A stretch of DNA of 64,000 bases from an uncultured Candidatus Saccharibacteria bacterium (GTDB taxonomy: Bacteria > Patescibacteriota > Saccharimonadia > Saccharimonadales > JALRHH01): NCBI GenBank assembly GCA_964474995.1, contig CAYYUY010000002.1:35755-99754 (forward strand), read 5' to 3'. Shown here in pieces: positions 1 to 38,241 of this stretch. The position numbers and the translations under genes are program-made. The notes beneath the pieces are model-generated. The model was not told the origin of the DNA. It worked only from the letters and a program-made list of their open reading frames with translations, and did no database searches. Position 1 is the first letter of the stretch. The number at the start of each line of letters is the position of its first letter.

Positions 1-59
1 CTGTTACGTCAAAGCTCAAGGTCAAACACCACACCAACTTTGAAATCACCCACCATGAT

Positions 60-4488: not shown

Positions 4489-6156
4489 ATGAAAGACCTT
4501 ACTCAACTTAGATTCGGATTATATGCACGGAAATCCGAGGAAAACGAAGACCGTCAAGTCCAGTCAATTCAAGACCAAAAGGATGAAATGCAAAAAATAG
4601 CAAAAGAACGTGGCTACACTATTGTTAAAGGCGCAATCTTTTGGGAATCCAAATCAGCCAAAGTGCCTGGCAAGCGTGAAGAGTTTGATAAGCTCATAGC
4701 ATTGGTGCAAGAGGGCAAAATTGACGGCATACTAAGCTGGAAAAGCAACCGTTTATCCCGAAATCCACTAGAGAGTGGCATTATTCAGCAATTGCTGTTT
4801 GATGAAAAACTTAAAGGCATTGTTACTAGTACTAAGACTTACTTGCCAGAAGACAATGCTCTCATTTTCAGCGTTGATTCCAGCATGGATAGTCAGTTTA
4901 GCCGTGATTTAATGGTAGTTGTTCGGCGTGGTATGCACTCAAAGGCTGCAAGGGGTTGGTTCCCAGGTGTACCGCCTATTGGGTATAGGAATCACTATGA
5001 TGAGTTCGGTACACCCAAGAAGACCATTGTGCTTGACCCAGACCGCTGGCACATAATACGCACTATGTGGGACATGATGTTGACAGGCACGTACACCGTG
5101 CCTGAAATTGCCCGTTGGGCAGAGAAAAATGGCTTACGGAGCATTAAGCGCAAGAAAAGTGGTAACAAGCCCATGTCCGTGCCTACTGTTTACGCTATGT
5201 TCCACAATCCGTTTTACGTAGGCTACCTGCGGTTCGGTGGTAAAGTACTTAAAGGTGAGCATGAGCCTATTGTTACGCAAAAGGAGTTTGACCAGGTGCA
5301 GACACTCATTAAACGCTACAATCAAGGCAGACCCGAAGTTAATGATAAGCCTGACCCATTTCCTTACAGAAACATCATTAAGTGCGGTGAGTGTGGCTGT
5401 GCCATAACCTACAGCACAGTTGAGAAGACCTATAAAGACGGCTCTACGCAGCTATTTGAGTATTGCTACTGCACCAGACGACGCAAAGACTACAAGTGTT
5501 CACAGAGCAAAACTATCAAGCCCCAACAGCTTACACGGCTTATACGGGCTGAGCTGGACAAGTACACTATCTTGCCAGAGTTCTTTGAGTGGGCTTGTGA
5601 GTACTTGAGCGAGTTCCACGACGAAGAAGTAGATAAGCAAGAAAAGATATTTGAAGCTCAAACCAAGACCATTAGTGACCTAGAATCCGAATTACGGGAA
5701 CTGGGACGTATGCGCTACAGGGGGCAAGTTGACGACGAGTTCTATGAAACTGAAAAGTTAATGCTGGAAAACAAGCTGACTGTATTACGTGGCGAGTTCA
5801 ACAAACAAGAAGAACACAACAAAGAACTACGCAAACTGTGTGATAAATACTTCAACTTTGCCCGTTATGCCCGTGAAGACTTTGAGAGCCAGGAAGATGA
5901 AAAGCGCCGTGAAGTGCTTTCGTTGGCAGGTCAAAACCTACTGTACGAAGACGGACAACTCCTGTTTGAGCCAATAAAATACCTATCACCATTAGTTGAA
6001 AAGTATCCTGAGCTAGAAAAGCAATATCTTAGCGTCCAAACCCAGCCAGAACAGATGAAAAAGGACGCCGTAGCGTCCATAATTCAAACGTGGTACACCG
6101 GGCTGGATTCGAACCAGCGACCCTCTGTTCCGAAGACAGATGCTCTAATCCACTGA
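4489..6156 (+). CDS. Large serine recombinase (integrase) LSR1
   Basis: Resolvase catalytic domain (LYARKSEENEDRQVQSIQDQ, SWKSNRLSRN), recombinase domain, Cys-rich zinc ribbon (CGECGCAITYS) and coiled-coil region. The last 22 codons are antisense to tRNA-Arg. Confidence 0.85.
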   Translation: MKDLTQLRFGLYARKSEENEDRQVQSIQDQKDEMQKIAKERGYTIVKGAIFWESKSAKVPGKREEFDKLIALVQEGKIDGILSWKSNRLSRNPLESGIIQQLLFDEKLKGIVTSTKTYLPEDNALIFSVDSSMDSQFSRDLMVVVRRGMHSKAARGWFPGVPPIGYRNHYDEFGTPKKTIVLDPDRWHIIRTMWDMMLTGTYTVPEIARWAEKNGLRSIKRKKSGNKPMSVPTVYAMFHNPFYVGYLRFGGKVLKGEHEPIVTQKEFDQVQTLIKRYNQGRPEVNDKPDPFPYRNIIKCGECGCAITYSTVEKTYKDGSTQLFEYCYCTRRRKDYKCSQSKTIKPQQLTRLIRAELDKYTILPEFFEWACEYLSEFHDEEVDKQEKIFEAQTKTISDLESELRELGRMRYRGQVDDEFYETEKLMLENKLTVLRGEFNKQEEHNKELRKLCDKYFNFARYAREDFESQEDEKRREVLSLAGQNLLYEDGQLLFEPIKYLSPLVEKYPELEKQYLSVQTQPEQMKKDAVASIIQTWYTGLDSNQRPSVPKTDALIH

Positions 6157-6167
6157 GCTACCGGTGC
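6091..6167 (-). tRNA. tRNA-Arg(TCG), CCA encoded
   Basis: Hand-folded cloverleaf: GCACCGG/TA/GCTC-AGTGGATTA-GAGC/A/TCTGT-CTTCGGA-ACAGA/GGGTC/GCTGG-TTCGAAT-CCAGC/CCGGTGT/A/CCA. The terminal pair is G1-U72. Confidence 0.85.
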
Positions 6168-6270
6168 GCATTATGTATATCTTAGTTATGAAAGTACTTA
6201 CCTTTTATCATCGTCACTGGCATGACAGTGTCTTTGAGCATCAGTTCTCTTATTTCTGCAGCAAGCTGCG

Positions 6271-6289
6271 TCCACTGAGCTACCGGTGC
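6271..6289. repeat. Orphan copy of the first 19 nt of tRNA-Arg(TCG) (identical to 6149-6167), 122 bp upstream of the gene
   Basis: TCCACTGAGCTACCGGTGC occurs at 6149-6167 (inside the tRNA) and at 6271-6289. The orphan copy is abutted by TGCAGCAAGCTGC (6257-6269). Confidence 0.9.
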
Positions 6290-28842: not shown

Positions 28843-28855
28843 TCGGGGTGAAAGG
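28843..28855. repeat. Distal att-like copy of the tRNA-Pro 3' end (13/13 with 38157-38169)
   Basis: An exact 13-mer is found twice in direct orientation, bracketing the island. Confidence 0.85.
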
Positions 28856-29021
28856 GCAATGCACTTCTGCGACTGTGCTCGAAACAAGTTTCTGCGTTCA
28901 GTCTTGAAGGTCAAACCATTCAACCTTCAATCTTTTGCTTAGGCAAAATCTTGGGTCGAAGGTTTGAGAACTTGAATCCAGGTCAAATAAAAAAGGCCTC
29001 CTGCGACGGTACTCAAAGAAG

Positions 29022-29465
29022 GTGCACCTAACTTCGGTGGCTCAGCGGCTGCACAAGCTGCTTGAAGTTGAGCCTCAGGCTGAGCTCATTGCAGACCCAG
29101 TTCGGGTGCGCCGCGTGGAGTGGCGGCTTGGTGAAGACGGAGTCAAGGAACTGATCGTCGATTACGAAGCTGGACTAGCGGTGCCCGAACTGCAGACCAA
29201 GTACGGACTGAGCAAGGGCTCGGTGCGGAAGCTGCTCAGTGATGCTGGAGTCAGCATGCGGCGACGTCCCCTGCCCGACTCGGTAGTTGCGCAGATCATC
29301 GAGTTGTACAAGACAGGGTTGTCGATCCGGGAGGTGGCGGCCAAGGTCGGAGTGCCGAAGACGACCGTTCAGAACTTGCTCGTGAAGTCGGGTGTGGTCA
29401 TGCGGCCGGCGGTTCGTTTTTCTCGTCGATCTGCTTCTGGGCATCAGCACGAGCTAGAGCGGTGA
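29022..29465 (+). CDS. Tandem helix-turn-helix protein, GC-rich (foreign-looking)
   Basis: GTG start. It has two internal repeats of the type (D/L)Y(E/K)xGL(A/S)(V/I)xE(L/V)xxK(Y/V)G(L/V)xKx(S/T)VxxLLxxxGVxMR. About 60% GC. The antisense ORFs are Arg-rich shadows. Confidence 0.55.
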   Translation: MHLTSVAQRLHKLLEVEPQAELIADPVRVRRVEWRLGEDGVKELIVDYEAGLAVPELQTKYGLSKGSVRKLLSDAGVSMRRRPLPDSVVAQIIELYKTGLSIREVAAKVGVPKTTVQNLLVKSGVVMRPAVRFSRRSASGHQHELER

Positions 29466-29888
29466 TGGCTTTGGCCAGTATGTGTAGGTCTACTGGTTTG
29501 CGTCTTATGCCAGTGACTTTGATGTTGTAGGTCTTGCGATGTGGCATTTGATAACAGATTAGCGCCCTTCCCTGATAGCAGGCTTATACAAGCCTAAACG
29601 CTATCCGTGGGGGTAAAACGACGTAGAATGTACTACATGTGGTGTATTAGCAATCAATCTTTGTTATAATCCAGATAGCCTAGAGAGATTTAGGCTACAG
29701 GAGGCGGAGTCTGTGTTGAGGTCTTACCAAAAACTAGTTCTATATCCTGTGGCCTCGTCTGCAGAAACAAACAATCCTACAAATTAGGGTGCAGGATAAA
29801 CCGCAGGTAGAAGACTGCTCGGTCAGTTTTCTACATGCCAATCCGGCCGCCGCACCACCAAGTACGGCTGGAAGAAAGAAAAGATCAA

Positions 29889-30095
29889 ATGGCAAAAACC
29901 CCACCCAATAGTGGTAAGTCTTGGTCTAGCAGCGACGTAGCAAAGTTACGTTCGCTAGCTCATGGCAACACACCAACGCGCGTAGCTGGCCTCAAACTAG
30001 GCCGCACCCCAGGTGCTGTGCAGACCAAGGCGTCTGAGCTGAACATCAGTCTCAAACCAACAAACCAATCGCCGTACGGCACTAAAAAGAAATAA
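29889..30095 (+). CDS. Small Myb/SANT-like DNA-binding protein
   Basis: GKSWSSSDVAKLRSLAHGNTPTRVAGLKLGRTPGAVQTKASEL fits the W-x3-(D/E)-x2-L...GRT...helix pattern. The start was set at MAKTPP; the track start is 29835. Confidence 0.35.
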   Translation: MAKTPPNSGKSWSSSDVAKLRSLAHGNTPTRVAGLKLGRTPGAVQTKASELNISLKPTNQSPYGTKKK

Positions 30096-30208
30096 CTCCC
30101 GGCCCACCCAGGAGTTACGAGTTACGACTTACGACTTAGCCTGAGACCGAGCTCAGGCCAAAGTTCTAAACAACAACCTAAGTATACAAGAAAAAGGAGG
30201 TCACTCAA

Positions 30209-30484
30209 ATGGTGATCTTGATTAGTTATGACTTGAATAAACATGAACGACCAGAGGCATACGCCAAGGTCAAGAAGATGATCGAAGACAACTCGATCAG
30301 CTGCAAAAAACCGCTCTACTCCCAGTGGTTCGCTGAAACAAACGACAGCGTGCAGACCTGGCACGAGCGGATGAAGGAGGTTACCGACGACAATGACTAC
30401 TGGTTCATCGTCACGGTAACTAGTACCGGTCATCAAGGCTGGTTGCCCAAAGCTGTTTGGGAGTGGTTGAACGAGCGCATCTAG
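30209..30484 (+). CDS. Small alpha/beta protein with Cas2/VapD-like N-terminal strand (function unknown)
   Basis: 91 aa with a strong RBS (AAGGAGG, 8-nt spacer). MVILISYDL...YWFIVTV has a beta-alpha-beta pattern reminiscent of ferredoxin-fold Cas2-like proteins. This is a weak call. Confidence 0.5.
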   Translation: MVILISYDLNKHERPEAYAKVKKMIEDNSISCKKPLYSQWFAETNDSVQTWHERMKEVTDDNDYWFIVTVTSTGHQGWLPKAVWEWLNERI

Positions 30485-30504
30485 TTCAAGGAAGGACTAA
30501 ATGA

Positions 30505-30537
30505 AAAGAGACTGCGCAATGCGCAGTCTCTTCGTTC
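30505..30537 (+). terminator. Rho-independent terminator
   Basis: GAGACTGCG-CAATG-CGCAGTCTC forms a 9-bp GC-rich stem followed by TTCGTTCT, 20 nt after the stop codon. Confidence 0.6.
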
Positions 30538-30829
30538 TGGGTGACTCCTACCTGTTCTTACTCGAATCACACGACCGGTGTAACAAGATGCCAAGGTCAT
30601 CTTACCGATCGGACATCGGGAAACAGGGGTAAATCACTCAAATACTGACATAAGGTACATTTGGTCGGCGTACTACGTCCTCAAACGAACCTGTACTCCA
30701 AACCTTGCATAGTCTACTACTTAACTTCGGTAGTATCAAGACTAGCTTAGATGCACTGAACTCACGGCTGGATAACCTTGTGCGGTCTGAACGTGCCTCT
30801 AGCATGGACTTTTTGCTATAGTAAGGTTA

Positions 30830-31033
30830 ATGAGTGATGTGAAATTGCCACCTCAAACATCGGCTACCGATACGTCTAATTGGGACAATAAAGTATTTAC
30901 TGCCCCTGTCGTAAGTAGTGTTAGTAAGATTATCAAGAACAAAGAACGGCGTGAGATGATACTTAATGCTCCCGAACCCAAAAGGCAAAAACGTTCTAAA
31001 AATCCAGATATTCAAAGAATCAAGAAGCTGTAA
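30830..31033 (+). CDS. Small basic hypothetical protein
   Basis: 67 aa, Lys/Arg-rich C-terminus, co-directional with the downstream pair. No motif recognised. Confidence 0.3.
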   Translation: MSDVKLPPQTSATDTSNWDNKVFTAPVVSSVSKIIKNKERREMILNAPEPKRQKRSKNPDIQRIKKL

Positions 31034-31069
31034 ATAACTAACGAGAAAAATGTTGAACCTAGAGAAACG

Positions 31070-31633
31070 ATGGAAGACTATACAAAGAAAGAGCTATTTG
31101 AAGAATTAGGTTCACTCAAAAAGTGGAATAAGCAAATGCTTCAGCAAGTGCAAGATTTTCGCAAACTTGGAGAGCATACAGTTGACGTAGATATGCGCAT
31201 GCAGAAAACCGAATCACTTGCCAAGAGAGCAAATGAGGACGTATTCACTCATTGGAAAATGTGGCGTTTTAAGCGGAAACGAGCACACCCGCTTATGATT
31301 AAAAACATGCAGACAATCAGCAAAGAAATGTCTGAGCATTTTCTTGAGTGTGGTCAGGCCTGGAAGTACCCCGACAGCCAACACATCCGTGAGAAAGACC
31401 CCGACCTATTCAGGAAGCGTGAAATTATTGAGGGTCATATTAGAGATAATCTGTTTACACTCAAGGATATGCGAGGGATTGCTCAAGAGTATGAAAGTCG
31501 TTATGGTTCTCACGAGCACTTAACCTCAGACAGAGCCTTTAAGTGGGTGCAGGTTCTTTTAGGATTCGTGTTTGGTGTCGCCTCATCTCTCATAGTTTTA
31601 TTTATCTCTCATATGCTGGGCTGGAAGCAATGA
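31070..31633 (+). CDS. Helical protein with C-terminal TM anchor (partner of a HEPN protein)
   Basis: 187 aa, predicted helical, with terminal WVQVLLGFVFGVASSLIVLFISHMLGW. Its stop overlaps the next ATG (ATGA at 31630-31633). Confidence 0.55.
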   Translation: MEDYTKKELFEELGSLKKWNKQMLQQVQDFRKLGEHTVDVDMRMQKTESLAKRANEDVFTHWKMWRFKRKRAHPLMIKNMQTISKEMSEHFLECGQAWKYPDSQHIREKDPDLFRKREIIEGHIRDNLFTLKDMRGIAQEYESRYGSHEHLTSDRAFKWVQVLLGFVFGVASSLIVLFISHMLGWKQ

Positions 31634-32259
31634 TAGACGACAGGCTAGACATTCCCTATGAGTCTGTTCATCCAGAAACTAAGCTGGACAAAAAGCTCCG
31701 TTTTTATGCGGAAGCAGACGAGCTATATGAGAAGTTCATCAAAGACATTAATGAATCAAACATGGATGGATTAACTAAGGCAATCTGTCTATTTAACATA
31801 AAGACCCAGTGGCTTGAACGTGCGCTTAACGATTTTTATGACAGGATTGCAATCACGAGCAGCAAGTCCAACCCTTACGTAGTAGGCGAGAAGGCTTCGA
31901 GTAAAGTTGCGAATAGTTTTAAAAGAAATGGTAAAACCGTTGGCTTCGCAGACTTAACACTCGGCACTAAACTGATAGCTCTTAAACTCTTTCGTTATAC
32001 TGACGAGGCTAGTGAGAAAAAGTACCAAGGCTATCTACAAGAGTTAGGTAATTTTGTTAAAAATAGAAACCAAATCATCCATAATCTTTTTACGCAGAAT
32101 CTGGAAACAAAGGACAAGATTAAGACAATCACAGAAGAGCTAATCCGTCTTGAGGTACTACTCTTAGCAACTGACCAGCGTGACAGCTTCTTGGCTAAGT
32201 ATCTCTTCGAGCACATGGGTGAGTATTGGGATTTAACTCTTGGCAATAAAGCATCGTAA
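31630..32259 (+). CDS. HEPN-domain protein (Swt1-like, RNxxxH)
   Basis: LTLGTKLIALKLF...LGNFVKNRNQIIHNLF. R is at 32065-32067 and H at 32080-32082 (Rx4H). The start was set at the ATGA overlap rather than the track start at 31543. Confidence 0.55.
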   Translation: MIDDRLDIPYESVHPETKLDKKLRFYAEADELYEKFIKDINESNMDGLTKAICLFNIKTQWLERALNDFYDRIAITSSKSNPYVVGEKASSKVANSFKRNGKTVGFADLTLGTKLIALKLFRYTDEASEKKYQGYLQELGNFVKNRNQIIHNLFTQNLETKDKIKTITEELIRLEVLLLATDQRDSFLAKYLFEHMGEYWDLTLGNKAS

Positions 32260-32499
32260 AAACTATCTACTTTCTGGGTTGTTAAGTAGTACGTGGGGTA
32301 TGGGAGGGACAGCCAAGCCTAGCGGTTCAAGTCCTGTTTATGGAGTACTACTTTAGGGCGTAAACATGCCGTAACGCTTAAACGAAAACTCCATACCATC
32401 TAGCCCTATGGAATCCACGGAAGCTAACATTTTTGGCTATGTTTAGATGTTACTGTTAGTGCGCTGGTTACGGATATTTAATGATATAATTTTGACAAT

Positions 32500-33483
32500 A
32501 TGCATGAGTTTTTAGTTAAGTTCGTAACGGTCTACAAAAAGCACCCAATACTGTACACAATTCTAGCTTTATTCATTACTGGAGTTACGGCGTTCACTAT
32601 ACTCATTCCACTGTCCATCTTCATGGTAGTCGTAGGCATTTACTATCTGGTCTATTTATTTAAGACACTGGCATACTACAAAACACCAGACTTCCTATCC
32701 ATTAAAGAAAAGCTAGCCGAGAAGATTGTTGAATACAATGAGTTTGACCATTTTATGGATGAGACCCGTGACTATATACGCTCAAAACAGCAAGAGCTTA
32801 CGACTGGAAACGTACGCAACAGTACGCTAACTGTATACAAGAACTCTCAACTTGATGTCTACAAATATATAGTCAAATACTTCTTCAAGAACACTAAAAT
32901 TGATGAGTCCTCTATGCAGATTATCGAAGCAATTCTGCAAAAATATAACACTATCAATCAGACCCACGAGATTCTGACAGACGAGTATAACGAACTAATG
33001 GAATATGTCCAAAAACATATGTACAGAGGTGCTTATATATTCAAGTCTATGACCATGAAGAAGCTAGGCTCACGCAAATTGCCCAAGTTCGAGAAGAACT
33101 ACTATATGTGGTATGCGTTTAACTACACGTCACCAACTAATAGGAAGTCATACAGCAACTCAATCGTGCTTGACGAAGAACGCCTAGAGGATTTCGCCGA
33201 GTTCCTAAACAACTTAATAGCATACAGAAAATCTGCAAAGTTCCAGCGTCAGCTCATGACTCCACGCCTTCGAGAAAGCATTCTGGTGCGCGATAAACAT
33301 ACCTGTAGGTCTTGCGGTATATCCACGCAAAAAGAAGCACATTTACTACTTGAGGTTGACCACATCATGCCTATTGCTAAGGGTGGTATAACGATAGAGA
33401 CAAACTTGCAGACGTTATGCTGGAAGTGCAACAGAACGAAGGGTGCTAAGGTTTTGACAGAAGCCATCCCTGTTCCTGCGTGA
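32500..33483 (+). CDS. 2-TM membrane protein with C-terminal HNH nuclease domain
   Basis: Two N-terminal TM helices and a ~190-aa unknown middle region. The C-terminus CRSCG...EVDHIMPIAKGG...NLQTLCWKCNRTKG is a canonical HNH (His-Me finger). Confidence 0.7.
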   Translation: MHEFLVKFVTVYKKHPILYTILALFITGVTAFTILIPLSIFMVVVGIYYLVYLFKTLAYYKTPDFLSIKEKLAEKIVEYNEFDHFMDETRDYIRSKQQELTTGNVRNSTLTVYKNSQLDVYKYIVKYFFKNTKIDESSMQIIEAILQKYNTINQTHEILTDEYNELMEYVQKHMYRGAYIFKSMTMKKLGSRKLPKFEKNYYMWYAFNYTSPTNRKSYSNSIVLDEERLEDFAEFLNNLIAYRKSAKFQRQLMTPRLRESILVRDKHTCRSCGISTQKEAHLLLEVDHIMPIAKGGITIETNLQTLCWKCNRTKGAKVLTEAIPVPA

Positions 33484-33636
33484 CTTATAGGCTACTTTCA
33501 GAACTGTTTTATAACTATAAGCAATACCATAACAATAACATAAGCATAAAGCCCAAATCACCCCTTAGTTACTCTTTAAAATCGGCGGATTCTAGCAGTT
33601 TTTGGATATCTACTTTTATATGATATATGCGTATGT

Positions 33637-34371
33637 CTACAGTAATGATTTAACGAGTTTCGTAGCGTTGTCTTCAAGGGCTTTATTAGCGTTAGACAAT
33701 CTAGAGGTTACAAACATCATACCCTCTATTTCTGTACGTGGGTCTTTGCCCATAGTTTGAAGCATGAGTTTTGAGTACTCCCACATGAGCGTACCGCCAA
33801 GCCCTTTACTGCCATCGTTTTTGCCGAGTGGTAAATCTCCATACTTTTTAACAATGCCTACTATGTGTGAGCCAAAAGCATCCCTATGGGTGTCGTCTGT
33901 ATCGCCGTCAGACAGATGCTTGAATATGTCACCAGTAACTAGCTCAATAGTACTTCTACCTTTGTATGATGGCACACCATGAGCACTGAATCGCTTCATA
34001 AGCATCAGCACACAGAACGCTACAACTAGACCCATAACCTCAGTAGCTTGTTCATCATTAAAACCGATTTGTTTTTTGAGGTCATCAGATACTTTTGCCG
34101 ACAAGAAAGATAATGTGTATGCATAAGCCTCTGGCTCATTTCTTGACTCAGTTGATGTGCTATCGCCCATCTTCTTGTTTTTGCCTACACGGTTCTTTAT
34201 AGCCTGAACTGCCGACACAATCCATAGGATAAGAATCACTATGTATAGCAGGCTATTAGCAAGTGCTCCATAAAATATGTCATGAGGAATAATAAAAATA
34301 GTAACCAGGAATAAACCCAGGCCAATTAAAAATAACTGGTAAGGTTTTAAGTGTTTCTTTTGTTTGACCAT
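33637..34371 (-). CDS. 2-TM membrane protein with soluble C-terminal domain, unknown function
   Basis: The start was set at MVKQKK, preceded by AAGGGG. Two TM helices are followed by a ~170-aa domain with no recognised motif. Confidence 0.5.
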   Translation of the reverse strand: MVKQKKHLKPYQLFLIGLGLFLVTIFIIPHDIFYGALANSLLYIVILILWIVSAVQAIKNRVGKNKKMGDSTSTESRNEPEAYAYTLSFLSAKVSDDLKKQIGFNDEQATEVMGLVVAFCVLMLMKRFSAHGVPSYKGRSTIELVTGDIFKHLSDGDTDDTHRDAFGSHIVGIVKKYGDLPLGKNDGSKGLGGTLMWEYSKLMLQTMGKDPRTEIEGMMFVTSRLSNANKALEDNATKLVKSLL

Positions 34372-34411
34372 GCTATTTCCCCTTAAAATAAAAAGCGACA
34401 ACCCACTAGGC

Positions 34412-34524
34412 TGTCTAGGTCAAACACAAAGAGTTGAGCTCTCTGAGTCTTTCGTGAGTTGCCGCATTTAATGCTCAACTACACGTGAAGAACTCACGCT
34501 TATTCTTTGTGTATAACCTAGACA
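34412..34524. repeat. 113-bp nested/interleaved inverted-repeat element in the intergenic region
   Basis: Outer arms are 34412-34432 and 34504-34524 (19/21 complementary). Inner pairs are GTTGAGC (34433-39)/GCTCAAC (34473-79) and CGTGAGTT (34453-60)/AACTCACG (34491-98), arranged a-b-a'-b'. Confidence 0.8.
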
Positions 34525-34703
34525 ATTACGATTATACAATAATACATCCAAAACTTGTGTTTTTAGGTCAAAAGTTAACTAATTTGGTCGCTAAAATTCG
34601 TTTATAAATCAAAAGATGAGTATGAACCCATCTCAGAAATAAAAATGCAAAAAATGAATCAAGTCCAGGGGTGATTTCGACAATGTTGGGGCATTATAAC
34701 GGG

Positions 34704-35576
34704 CTATGGGTATAGCGGTTTGTTCGAGTCAAAGGTGTGTATGAGTTCAAGGGCTTTTACCTTTTTCGGCTTGTCTACAAAGTTCAATGCAAGGTAGGGT
34801 ATGATTGCGCTCGTAGTTTTAATGCTTAGCCTGCACCGCTTGATTACGGCTAGCTTTAATCTTCGTTTGTCTTTATCCCTTAATGTCAAATCATATTTAA
34901 TACGGTTGAAGGCCAATTCGTACTTGCTATACAGTGCTATCAGATACACAGATGGAATATATGTAAACGATAGGATGATAGGCAACAAAAACAGTTCAAG
35001 GTTTTGATATGTAAAGAGCGAGGTAGGATTTTTTGTAAAGGCCATGAATGAGAACAGTATTATTAATAAACCTATAAATACTTGCACTCCATTGAGTACC
35101 TTACGGGTAAGCTCAATACCGTCTACTTTTTGATACTTTGCTACCGTAGCCAGTAATACGATAAATGTTACAAATGGCACTAGTAACAGCTCTGCCCATA
35201 ACGGAAATACGTAAAACCAAATGAAGAACTCAAGCACGACCACTAACGCTAGGGATTCTTTTGCGGTCTGTTTGTACAGTGTCCTCAAATCTTTGACACT
35301 ATTAAACTTGCCGAACATTATTATGCCCGTACCGATGACCCAATAGATTGTTTCCTTGAGAACTGATAAGTCCCAAAGATTGAGGTATGCTAGTAACCAA
35401 ACAACTAATACGGTGGGTATGAATGATAGCAGCAATGGTAAAAGTATTGGTAAAGCTGCTTTGGGGATGGGCGCAAAGGCCGTCCGTACAACTTTAAAAC
35501 AGACAGCAAATACTATCAGCGCTACTAGCCACAATCCTACGGCAATCTCTCTGTTATTAAAGAGACCGTCCATCAC
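34704..35576 (-). CDS. About 7-TM membrane protein with basic cytoplasmic tail (partner of a HEPN-like protein)
   Basis: 290 aa, about seven hydrophobic helices, C-terminal KDKRRLKLAVIKRCR region. Its ATG overlaps the upstream stop (ATGA at 35573-35576). Confidence 0.6.
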   Translation of the reverse strand: MMDGLFNNREIAVGLWLVALIVFAVCFKVVRTAFAPIPKAALPILLPLLLSFIPTVLVVWLLAYLNLWDLSVLKETIYWVIGTGIIMFGKFNSVKDLRTLYKQTAKESLALVVVLEFFIWFYVFPLWAELLLVPFVTFIVLLATVAKYQKVDGIELTRKVLNGVQVFIGLLIILFSFMAFTKNPTSLFTYQNLELFLLPIILSFTYIPSVYLIALYSKYELAFNRIKYDLTLRDKDKRRLKLAVIKRCRLSIKTTSAIIPYLALNFVDKPKKVKALELIHTFDSNKPLYP

Positions 35577-36130
35577 GCCTCTGGGCTGTTTTTGGTGATT
35601 ATCTCTGCTGACTGTTGGTAAATAGTAACCGTTTCGCCATCAATCTCTATTTTGCCACCCAATACCATTGTCCACATTATTGTTTCGGCGGTTGTAATGT
35701 ATGTATCTATTTGTTGAGCAGTTAGTTCAGTTGACCCCATTTTTACACCACTGTCGGTAAAGACTATTTGTACTAATAACTTATCGTTCAATCCTATAGC
35801 CTGACCTCGCTTGCCCTTACTGCGGTCTTCTTCGCCCCTGCTGTCATGCCTTAGATGATTACGGAATTGCCTGATTGTTTCGCCAGTAGGCAATGTTACG
35901 CCTCTATTCCTTAGCTGTACTTCTATGCTGTCTAGGTGTTCTAGCAGTGCAGATAACTCATAGGTACACTTATCTATGCCACCACCCAAAACCATCTTGT
36001 GCGTTTTCATCATTCTTTGCGCCTCTAAATAGCGTTCTAGTTGGATTTTTGCACCTGTAATATACGGTCTGGTTGTGGCAAGCATTATTTGTGGGTTAGT
36101 TGCCATGTAATCATTATCCTTCTTGACCAT
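35573..36130 (-). CDS. HEPN-like protein (Rx4H: FRNHLRHD) with extra C-terminal domain
   Basis: The RNHLRH motif is encoded at 35846-35863, checked by hand. The start was set at MVKKDND, 2 nt after the excisionase-like gene's stop. Confidence 0.45.
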   Translation of the reverse strand: MVKKDNDYMATNPQIMLATTRPYITGAKIQLERYLEAQRMMKTHKMVLGGGIDKCTYELSALLEHLDSIEVQLRNRGVTLPTGETIRQFRNHLRHDSRGEEDRSKGKRGQAIGLNDKLLVQIVFTDSGVKMGSTELTAQQIDTYITTAETIMWTMVLGGKIEIDGETVTIYQQSAEIITKNSPEA

Positions 36131-36132
36131 AT

Positions 36133-36315
36133 CTACTTGTTGGCCTCGATAAACTTTAGGACATCTGATTTCTTCCAACGCCGTATGTTGCGCTTGCCAA
36201 TACGTACAGCTTTAAGCGTACCGTCTTTATCCCAGTTGCGTAATGTATTTGGATGTACCTTTAATATCTTCACCACTTCTGGCATGGTTAGATACTCTGG
36301 TAGTTCATTTTCCAT
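36133..36315 (-). CDS. Excisionase/AlpA-like MerR-type HTH protein (candidate recombination directionality factor)
   Basis: 60 aa. LTMPEVVKILKVHPNTLRNWDKDGTLKAVRIGKRNIRRWKKSDV matches the HTH_17/Xis pattern. It is divergent from the LSR gene. Confidence 0.65.
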   Translation of the reverse strand: MENELPEYLTMPEVVKILKVHPNTLRNWDKDGTLKAVRIGKRNIRRWKKSDVLKFIEANK

Positions 36316-36372
36316 ATAACAATAGTTTACATTAGATTATAATTTTTGTACACTATTATCAGGAATTGTTAT

Positions 36373-38241
36373 ATGCCAAAAGGTACAACCAATCGTCAAA
36401 AACGCAATAAAGTTCTCATAGATGAGACAGAACTTGCAAGCGTGCAAGAACAGACGTTCACCTCTGAATATCGTGATAAAGCCTTTGGCAATAGCGAGCG
36501 TAGTGTTAATGAGTTGCTAGACTACTTCTCTGCTACTACGCAGGGTACAAAAAAGATACTGCCTAAAGAAAAGCGCCGTTACGTTGTATACCTACGTAAG
36601 TCTACTGACGATGAGGCTAAGCAAGTACGTTCGCTAGATGACCAGCGTGCAGAGTGTTTACGATATGCAGCCAACGTACTAAAAGTTACTATCCGTGAAG
36701 AAGATATTTTAGTGGAAAGTGCCTCTGCTAAAACTTCTGGCAACCGTCCTATCTTTGACGCTATGTTGCAGGGATTCAGAACTGGTAAATATCAGGGGCT
36801 TATATCGTGGTCGCCTGACCGCATCTCTCGTAACATGAAAGAGGCTGGTGAGGTCATCGAGATGATTGACCATGAAGAAATACAAGACCTCGCCTTTGTG
36901 ACATACCAGTTTGATAACTCGCCAAACGGCAAAATGATGCTAGGCATTCTGTTTGCTACATCTAAGCAATACTCCGACAAACTAGCAGTAGATGTAAAAA
37001 GGGGTACTGTGGGTAACATCGTAGAGGGCAAGTATAACGGTGTACTAAAAAAGGGCTACTATGTTGATGCTGTAACTGGCTACTTTACACCTGATGAATA
37101 TAACTGGAACGTGTTACGCAAAGCGGTAGATATGAGGCTGTATGAGGGTAAGAGCAATACTGACATCGCAGACTTCTTGAACAGTGCTAAACTCACTGAA
37201 CGCAAGAACCAAGACGAACAGTCTAAGCTTGTAAAAGTTACTAAACAAATGGTAGGTAATATCTTTGAAGATTCATTCTACTGTGGGCTGTACAAATATG
37301 GTGACAACCTCGCAAATCTAGTAGACCTATATAACTTCAAGCCTCTTATAACAGCAGATGAATATATACAACTCAATGCTGATGTCGCAAAGGACTTTGG
37401 TAGAACTACGAGCGTAAAGACAAACCGCAATCAGCGGCTAGATTATGGCTTGCTGCACAACAAAGTCATTTGTGATTACTGTGATACTGCTATGCAATTT
37501 CAACATACGCCTATTAAGCGTGGTAAGAACGCTGGCAAGTGGGTGATTAGCTTCTATTGCCGCAATAGGGCTTGTTTGCGCCACAATTCAGCGGAGCAAA
37601 AGAGTTTGGGTGTCAAACTATCTAAAAGTATTCGTGGCAAGTACGTCTTAGCAGGCATTGAATGGCAGCTACGCCATCTCACTAAAAAGAGTGAGCAAGC
37701 ATATCGTATGCATATCAACAGTCTAGAGCAGCGTATTGCTGCCGATAGGAGCATTCTAAACCGCAAACTTGCCGAAGCTAAGCAGTCACTCAAGAATAAC
37801 GAACAGCAGTATGCACGATATCAGGAGTTTCAAGTTAACAGCCCTATTGACTACAAAAAGTATCACGAGGGCAAACTAGAGCAATACCAACAGCTGATAC
37901 ACCTAGACGAAGAAGCTATAACGGATAATAAAGCCGAACTGGCTAAACTTGACGTAGCACTGCCTACAGAGCAAGAGTTTTACGAACTCACACGTTCTAA
38001 GGTGTTAGATATGCTAAAAACAACAGACATCATGACTCTAGACACTATATGCAGTGAGTTTGTTACGAACCTACGTGCAGGCAATGACTTTACCTCTGTT
38101 ATAAAACTAAAACCACCATACGATAATATGGTGGAATTAGGTTCTGTAACTACTGGTCGGGGTGAAAGGACTCAAACCTTCGACCTCTCGGTCCCAAACC
38201 GAGCGCGCTATCAACTGCGCCACACCCCGATGGGCCTATGA
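36373..38241 (+). CDS. Large serine recombinase (integrase) LSR2, with ~65-aa N-terminal extension
   Basis: YVVYLRKSTDDEAKQVRSLDDQ (catalytic Ser), SWSPDRISRN, recombinase domain, Cys-rich zinc ribbon (CDYCDTAM...CRNRAC) and a long coiled coil. The last 29 codons are antisense to tRNA-Pro. The start was set at the ATG (36373) rather than the TTG (36346). Confidence 0.85.
   Translation: MPKGTTNRQKRNKVLIDETELASVQEQTFTSEYRDKAFGNSERSVNELLDYFSATTQGTKKILPKEKRRYVVYLRKSTDDEAKQVRSLDDQRAECLRYAANVLKVTIREEDILVESASAKTSGNRPIFDAMLQGFRTGKYQGLISWSPDRISRNMKEAGEVIEMIDHEEIQDLAFVTYQFDNSPNGKMMLGILFATSKQYSDKLAVDVKRGTVGNIVEGKYNGVLKKGYYVDAVTGYFTPDEYNWNVLRKAVDMRLYEGKSNTDIADFLNSAKLTERKNQDEQSKLVKVTKQMVGNIFEDSFYCGLYKYGDNLANLVDLYNFKPLITADEYIQLNADVAKDFGRTTSVKTNRNQRLDYGLLHNKVICDYCDTAMQFQHTPIKRGKNAGKWVISFYCRNRACLRHNSAEQKSLGVKLSKSIRGKYVLAGIEWQLRHLTKKSEQAYRMHINSLEQRIAADRSILNRKLAEAKQSLKNNEQQYARYQEFQVNSPIDYKKYHEGKLEQYQQLIHLDEEAITDNKAELAKLDVALPTEQEFYELTRSKVLDMLKTTDIMTLDTICSEFVTNLRAGNDFTSVIKLKPPYDNMVELGSVTTGRGERTQTFDLSVPNRARYQLRHTPMGL
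38154..38229 (-). tRNA. tRNA-Pro(TGG), CCA encoded
   Basis: Hand fold: CGGGGTG/TG/GCGC-AGTTGATA-GCGC/G/CTCGG-TTTGGGA-CCGAG/AGGTC/GAAGG-TTTGAGT-CCTTT/CACCCCG/A/CCA. It has an unusual A19 and U56. Confidence 0.85.

Follow-up and report, generated by a model that had tools for sequence, protein, structure and literature searches.

What becomes of a recombinase whose gene runs, without a stop codon, across the attachment site of its own element and on into a host tRNA gene? The question is raised by a 64,000-nucleotide stretch of DNA from an uncultured Candidatus Saccharibacteria bacterium (contig CAYYUY010000002.1, positions 35,755 to 99,754; referred to below as the window), in which a large serine recombinase (LSR) gene, LSR2, lies at the right end of an integrative element at a tRNA-Pro gene. 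Our answer, to which we give a probability of roughly 0.85, is that LSR2 belongs to a family of Saccharibacteria LSRs whose gene spans the attP of the element itself (attP and attB being the attachment sites of the circle and the empty chromosome, and attL and attR those at the ends of the integrated element), and that the circle restores a conserved 50-codon end to the gene. Comparison of family loci shows that integration would detach this segment, which is under selection, and put junk encoded by the tRNA gene in its place.

The LSR2 gene and the end of its family conservation

The LSR2 open reading frame (ORF; 36346 or 36373 to 38241, plus strand) encodes the Pfam Resolvase and Recombinase domains. 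The catalytic domain (PF00239, E = 2.7e-18) contains S77 within YLRKSTDDE, invariant in relatives, and the Recombinase domain (PF07508, E = 5.4e-8) covers residues 245-338. The Pfam Zn_ribbon_recom model had no match on LSR2; the four zinc-ribbon cysteines (C367, C370, C396 and C401) are invariant. An AlphaFold2 model has beta strands at residues 375-395 and long helices at 437-526, and Foldseek aligned it over its full length (>550 columns, E values of 1e-12 to 1e-8) with the SPbeta, PhiC31 and Bxb1 integrases; an integrase was also matched in PHROG. Judged by sequence and model, LSR2 is a large serine recombinase having a zinc-ribbon domain with an embedded coiled coil. Its catalytic and DNA-binding domains are all encoded upstream of the att core, and the final two codons of the gene body (36373..38160, plus strand; 596 codons, conserved family-wide up to ...KPPYDNMVELGSVTTGR), GGT CGG, lie inside the core.

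This core, the attR core TGGTCGG (38154..38160, plus strand), is shared with the chromosomal target, a tRNA-Pro(TGG) gene on the minus strand (38154..38229, identified by ARAGORN), which is intact after integration and has a genome-encoded CCA end. All five tRNA genes of the window encode CCA, so the core is truly common to host and element. To the right of the core lies the integrated-state tail of the ORF (38161..38241, plus strand; 26 codons and a stop), which consists of tRNA-Pro antisense and 12 nucleotides (nt) beyond and is unconserved in relatives. An initial annotation, made from the sequence alone, had already noted that LSR2 has no stop before the tRNA gene, that it runs antisense through the whole of it and that its last residues (GERTQTFDLSVPNRARYQLRHTPMGL) are tRNA antisense, and in these points it was correct.

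Relatives of LSR2 were collected by a protein search, which returned hundreds of Saccharibacteria and Patescibacteria sequences (120 proteins were examined for stops before the core), and by a scan of one genome per species, which gave 79 genomic loci and 53 copies of the conserved terminal motif. All relatives from the protein search are conserved up to ...VIKLNPPYxLxVDLxxISTGR. Beyond STGR they fall into three classes: those with tRNA-antisense tails (ERTRTFDLxVPNRAR..., DRIRTCD...); those with a stop after 1-4 residues; and those with unrelated tails of 40-55 amino acids (aa). The motif adjoins antisense tRNA in 39 of the 53 genomic copies, and in 38 of these 39 the offset is identical: the motif reaches 6 nt into the antisense of the tRNA gene, and GGT CGG overlaps its encoded CCA end, its discriminator base and two bases of its acceptor stem. 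The tRNA targets are mostly Pro (TGG, GGG or CGG anticodon), with Val, Gln and Ser also used. Not one of the 120 proteins and 53 genomic copies has a stop before the core. Conservation thus stops at the core and no relative has an in-frame stop upstream of it.

What follows the motif in the integrated state is another matter. The tRNA-encoded tails of relatives are 1 aa (9 loci), 4 aa (11 loci), 16 aa (10 loci) or 23-64 aa (8 loci) long, the stop codon always coming from the tRNA and falling after 1, 4 or 16 codons in 30 of 38 relatives. As the tRNA supplies the stop at such varied distances, the read-through of a whole tRNA by LSR2 is incidental; the chance of meeting no stop over 25 codons is, by our estimate, about 0.3, or (61/64)^25. 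What is not due to chance is the lack of a stop before the core in every member of the family. With a length of anything between 1 and 64 aa, the tail encoded by the tRNA gene is clearly junk and no functional module specific to one isoform.

The detached 3' segment and the site of recombination

To locate the other end of the gene, the non-tRNA tails of natural proteins (P0086, P0090 and L015) were compared with all loci by tblastn. The tail of these natural fusion proteins matches the window at 30669-30818 (56% identity, E = 6e-14), that is, at the opposite end of the element. The detached segment (30669..30821, plus strand) comprises 50 codons and a stop, is in frame with GGT CGG and has no start codon of its own, an in-frame stop being present at 30651-30653; the real circle-form tail of LSR2 would be RTTSSNEPVLQTLHSLLLNFGSIKTSLDALNSRLDNLVRSERASSMDFLL (30669-30818). 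In nearly every integrated locus of the family such a segment is found on the plus strand, 2.8-7.9 kb upstream of the LSR, and in about 55 loci it is directly preceded by TGGTCG, the DNA further left being unrelated between loci. The family tails have 49-51 codons and a conserved stop, lack a conserved start, and end in QFLL, DFLL or KFV.

The substitution pattern within these tails indicates protein-level purifying selection. Over codons 9-50, a set of 35 distinct tails of 50 codons has a nucleotide diversity of 0.51 at first, 0.34 at second and 0.61 at third codon positions, and the synonymous share of single-base codon differences in the 35 tails is 53% in the tail frame vs 21% and 12% in the two shifted frames. 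Codons 1-8 are strongly conserved as DNA (..AAnCGAACCT), and we interpret them as the P' half-site of attP, the first ~24 nt of the tail (CGTACTACGTCCTCAAACGAACCT) thus doing double duty. The reading frame provides a further line of evidence. A sister subfamily, whose LSRs are 52-56% identical to LSR2, reads the core shifted by one base, as TGG TCG (...SWS), the LSR2-type register being (T)GGT CGN (...TGR). In 41 of 41 scorable loci (30 and 11 from the two subfamilies) the register of the tail is that of the LSR, and the frame is open throughout. AlphaFold2 predicts the tail as a single long helix (residues 603-645) with an amphipathic pattern, preceded by a linker for which the P' site codes.

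The left end of the element can be placed accordingly at an attL core, TGGTCGG, at 30662..30668 (plus strand). There the window reads ...ggtacattTGGTCGG up to the junction and CGT ACT ACG TCC TCA AAC GAA CCT... beyond it. DNA similarity to a syntenic locus (L001) spans 30659 to 38140, and a drop in GC content starts at about 31 kb. The crossover is bounded on both sides: the base after TGGTCG is G, A or C in P' vs G in the tRNA, and the preceding DNA differs between the P arm and the host. This confines the crossover to TGGTCG, which is antisense to the CCA end that the tRNA gene encodes, to the discriminator base and to the first two bases of the acceptor stem. Counted from the core T, CGAACCT stands at +24..30 in P' and at +19..25 in the B' arm provided by the tRNA, where it is the antisense of the T-loop. 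In LSR sites, the zinc-ribbon-domain motif lies 5 bp nearer the centre in attB than in attP (PMC3783163), and the 5-bp outward shift of CGAACCT in P' fits this signature. Both P and P' arms carry AAAnnnACC, and comparison of the two arms would put the centre of the site at the G-T step of TG-GT-CG. An AGGTTC/GAACCT symmetry in the attP of the window was set aside, being unconserved in relatives.

The initial annotation had placed attP within the recombinase ORF, and the family-wide fixed tRNA offset and the tail at the opposite end of the element bear this out. It had, however, taken a 13-bp repeat, TCGGGGTGAAAGG, for the att core. The exact repeat is real, occurring in the window just twice (at 28843 and 38157; 0 expected by chance), and an att site does lie inside the LSR2 ORF; but the crossover is in TGGTCG and not in the 13-mer, and 28843 is not the attL of the LSR2 element, the true one being at 30662.

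A gene probably divided by integration: model, alternatives and precedents

In the model that we propose, conservation of the gene body ends with two residues that TGGTCG also encodes: G-R, or, in the sister subfamily, W-S. On the circle, the ORF would cross the core, continue through about 8 codons overlapping the P' half-site and then encode a predicted helical segment of about 42 aa ending in ...QFLL/DFLL, yielding a product of 646 aa. Integration into tRNA-Pro would part 30669-30821 from 36373-38160 by 7.5 kb, and the integrated gene would run into tRNA antisense up to a fortuitous stop, leaving a 596-aa core plus junk (26 aa here; 622 aa in total). The predicted circle junction joins ...ACTACTGGTCGG to CGTACTACG..., the predicted attP junction sequence is GGTTCTGTAACTACTGGTCGGCGTACTACGTCCTCAAACGAACC and the predicted sequence of the empty site is AAGGTACATTTGGTCGGGGTGAAAGGACTC. 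On this model, the full-length enzyme, for which only the excised circle would have an intact gene, would be proficient in integration, and the truncated prophage form would have reduced or altered activity, so that recombinase function would be tied to the topological state of the element, with the neighbouring HTH_17 protein as the likely excision cofactor. The purifying selection on the circle-form tail would be indirect evidence for such a difference in activity; the tail might serve to promote integration, to block excision or to make the protein more stable. That integration rewrites the C-terminus and that two state-specific isoforms are encoded had been suggested in the initial annotation, which also conjectured a directionality or immunity switch; the fixed offset, the 41 of 41 matching registers and the selection on the tail are in line with the rewriting and the two isoforms.

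Several observations weigh against this reading. The DNA site accounts for part of the conservation of the tail (codons 1-8), and the loci share phylogeny, the 41 of 41 registers amounting to about two independent events. The pLDDT (predicted local distance difference test) values of the tail helix are only ~35-66, the alignment used for the model held just 3 tail-bearing sequences, no docking could be interpreted and no Pfam domain was found in the tail. In the LSR1 family, described below, the tails are 16-26 aa long and poorly conserved beyond the site motif; a functional tail is thus not a general requirement of the layout. Natural LSR-tail fusion proteins do exist (P0086, P0090, L002 and L015), but all those checked are on contigs that are possibly tandem arrays rather than circles, or incomplete. 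Neither an excised circle nor an empty attB for the LSR2 element was found in metagenome or viral-collection scans: a single metagenome scan for the P' pattern yielded 10 loci, each an attL or a junction between a relic LSR and a tail, with no circular contig; and neither the protein nor the P' pattern had a match in the viral contigs. L001 and L002 were considered as circles and rejected, having no terminal overlaps.

The proposal of the initial annotation itself was an element spanning 28856-38156 that recombines in TCGGGGTGAAAGG, the circle joining the LSR2 frame to 28856 and adding a 28-aa tail (AMHFCDC...; AMHFCDCARNKFLRSVLKVKPFNLQSFA). Although chance would not be expected to produce the exact 13-mer repeat, which corresponds to the tRNA 3' end, we consider this proposal very improbable. 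The flank of 28856 lacks the family P' motif and is homologous only to the left end of another locus, L080, which carries a different LSR of 561 aa with a stop inside its core; the conserved family tail and core lie at 30662-30821, the synteny with L001 starts at 30659 and the GC drop is near 31 kb; and the 28-aa tail is without counterpart in the relatives of LSR2. No more credible is the idea that the 50-codon segment is a small gene translated by itself in the integrated state. Its open frame under protein-level selection would suit such a gene, but the segment has no conserved start codon or ribosome-binding site, the unrelated DNA upstream, of host or relic origin, has in-frame stops at a distance of 3-40 codons, the core is the exact point at which conservation sets in, the register follows that of the LSR, and the segment is found fused to LSRs in database proteins.

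A more serious alternative, though still an unlikely one, is that only site geometry is involved: attP would overlap the 3' end of the gene, a functionless read-through would be tolerated, and the tail would be conserved as DNA (P' arm and accessory sites). This trivial explanation was considered for a similar gene, dsiB, by McMurdie et al. (PMC3146451), and it would account for the first ~8 tail codons being conserved as DNA, for the short and variable tails of the LSR1 family and for the junk tails of the integrated state. It does not account for the coding-type substitution pattern of codons 9-50, which is specific to the tail frame, for the conserved length and stop position, for the co-shift of tail and LSR registers or for the predicted amphipathic helix pattern. 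A gene spanning attP, with a conserved end restored on the circle, is what we prefer on these grounds. Going further, the helical tail might be a cis-encoded topology sensor: the full-length enzyme, made on the circle only, would be competent for integration; the chromosomal form would be inactive or restricted to excision; and gene integrity would in part enforce directionality, alongside a separate factor, a design perhaps shared by several LSR families of the candidate phyla radiation that target the tRNA CCA end. We offer this extension tentatively and regard it as possible but doubtful.

The initial annotation knew of no precedent among LSRs, but one with the same layout and the same hypothesis was described in 2011. 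In the ssrA islands of Dehalococcoides, DsiB is a large, CcrB-like serine recombinase encoded at the island edge; the 3' end of dsiB always overlaps the att repeat, its stop lying only outside the island, in the antisense of the small RNA gene or in the next island; and the authors suggested that DsiB is perhaps fully functional only on the circle, its C-termini being reported as divergent (McMurdie et al., 2011; PMC3146451). That system differs from LSR2 in its target (transfer-messenger RNA), its lineage and its second, small recombinase, DsiA; the LSR2 family also has features not reported for DsiB, namely a conserved tail encoded at the opposite end of the element, the selection acting on it and the covariation of the frame. 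In the IntP/IntX system of myxophage Mx8, attP lies inside the integrase coding sequence and integration creates a new 3' end (Tojo 1996; Magrini 1999), the altered activity of the prophage-form integrase being experimentally established (PMC6070905). LSR2 is alike in having no stop before the crossover and an alternative 3' end in frame at the opposite end of the element. Mx8, however, is a phage with a tyrosine recombinase and is known by experiment, whereas LSR2 is a serine recombinase of a 7.5-kb element and is known by sequence.

Two other systems are less similar. In archaeal viruses of the SSV1 type, the tyrosine recombinase gene contains attP and is split on integration into a tRNA gene, inactivating the prophage copy. 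That split cuts the gene body itself, whereas LSR2 loses only a C-terminal extension; LSR2 is a serine recombinase with its domains all upstream of the core, and is not a partitioned integrase of the SSV type. Broussard and colleagues are said to have described in 2013 an integration-dependent immunity of mycobacteriophages, in which attP lies within the repressor gene and integration removes a C-terminal degradation tag. Both systems swap a C-terminus, but here the split gene is that of the recombinase itself, and its tail is a segment of ~42 aa, predicted to be helical and ending in ...QFLL/DFLL, rather than an ssrA-like tag. With PhiC31, Bxb1, LI/A118 and SPbeta, LSR2 has in common its domain architecture and the attP/attB logic with a zinc-ribbon motif shifted by 5 bp; to our knowledge, attP lies outside int in all four. 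Directionality in the canonical large serine integrases comes from the coiled coil and a separate directionality factor, not from gene integrity.

The layout of LSR2 is thus not a new category. What is new, and well supported, is an LSR family with a conserved and selected tail across attP that targets the tRNA CCA end, a layout not previously shown so clearly for serine integrases; the speculation made for dsiB in 2011 is raised to a case with comparative evidence. Large serine integrases are leading tools for genome insertion, for which the control of directionality is a central question, and if integration does remove a selected C-terminal module, this would be a natural, factor-independent coupling to the state of the element that could be copied in engineered systems. 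Gene callers systematically mis-annotate such recombinases, database proteins carrying tRNA-antisense junk or the tail of the next element, and the orphan 50-codon segment marks the left end of an element exactly, allowing easy delimitation in genomes of uncultured Saccharibacteria.

Other features of the element and its neighbours

The LSR2 element (30662..38160) is about 7.5 kb long, low in GC and carries an HNH endonuclease gene, six ORFs of unknown function, an HTH_17 gene and the LSR; no phage structural or conjugation genes were found in it by Pfam and PHROG annotation. Its cargo at 31543-32259 and 32500-33483 shows a weak HEPN (RiboL-PSP) match and the HNH endonuclease. The HTH_17/MerR-like protein of 60 aa (36133..36315, minus strand; Pfam) is encoded divergently from LSR2, is syntenic in L001 and has excisionase matches in PHROG, which makes it a candidate excisionase, directionality factor or regulator.

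An inverted repeat (38104..38143; 17-nt arms and a 6-nt spacer) is present in the 3' end of LSR2, 11 nt from the core, and its right arm is probably the zinc-ribbon-domain motif of the P arm. The 12-bp core of the repeat, TAAATCCACCAT / ATGGTGGATTTA, encodes NPPY..MVDL. Among 58 distinct relatives having it at the same position, each pair is kept in 69-98%, and 10 of the 12 pairs in at least 86%; one pair is compensatory (A-T to G-C, changing Val to Thr), and the repeat is still present in a relic (L083) despite its broken ORF. These observations suggest that the DNA or RNA itself is under selection, perhaps as a second protein-binding site.

The DNA to the left of the element appears to have a history of its own. 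The 13-mer at 28843..28855 (plus strand) is a displaced tRNA-Pro 3' fragment, the attL left behind by an LSR element of another family, and is followed by the remnant of an earlier element (28856..30661), which has an HTH ORF (29022..29465) and no recombinase. The flank right of 28855 lacks the P' motif and is homologous only to L080 (75% over 119 nt), the homology beginning exactly at the displaced tRNA fragment of L080, with the L080 tRNA variant GATAGG. The LSR of L080 belongs to a different family, being 27% identical to LSR1 and 34% (best segment) to LSR2. L080 (9938-11623 and 768-885) represents a second tRNA-Pro LSR family, with a core of at least 13-16 bp and a TGA stop inside it, so that, unlike in LSR2, the C-terminus is unchanged on integration. 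In our reading, an element of another family once occupied the same tRNA gene and left 28843-30661 as its relic, and the LSR2 element was presumably inserted later, on the tRNA-proximal side of it.

The tRNA-Pro site has evidently been used by elements repeatedly. In L083 and L085, intact tails have immediately to their left the 3' ends of relic LSRs, broken by frameshifts or stops, and double copies are present in L015 and L037. In tandem arrays, or where a relic 3' end remains, the LSR end adjoins the tail of the next element in a P-core-P' junction (L015, L037, L017, L065, L001, L083, L085/L087 and L094); new elements seem to insert beside resident ones, a pattern not easily reconciled with the canonical LSR rules, by which only attP x attB recombine. 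In many assemblies the contig stops at the LSR/tRNA junction or a few bases from it (L006, L021, L028, L030, L037 and L041), which fits sampled populations where integrated states are mixed with empty or alternative ones. Further tail families, unrelated to these and 42-53 aa long, such as DARMLLELFKYI..., occur at L009 (2350), L032 (5582) and L062 (8534) and in P0098, P0019, P0021 and P0009; they follow a (T)GGTCG-type core and keep the ..GAAC.. motif, and further element families evidently have the same tRNA site and split-gene design.

LSR1 (4489..6156, plus strand), of a different LSR family and 25% identical to LSR2, reads 66 nt into the antisense of tRNA-Arg(TCG) (6091..6167). In its family, conservation ends at W-[Y/C/L] (codons TGG TAC), and what follows is either a tRNA-antisense tail (..RQDSNLRP..) or a short non-tRNA tail with ..[E/D]V[R/Q/M]T. 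In L092 and L093, a TGGTAC core is immediately followed, at the left end of the element, by an LSR1-type tail with a T-loop-like motif ~5 bp further out. The remark in the initial annotation that the layout recurs at LSR1 is borne out by the end of LSR1 inside tRNA-Arg and by these two tails. The attL of LSR1 was not located within the window and is probably to the left of it. The 5' 19-20 nt of tRNA-Arg(TCG), TCCACTGAGCTACCGGTGC, at 6148-6167, are repeated 96 bp further right, at 6264-6283, and the repeat may be a relic of another insertion or a tRNA gene fragment.

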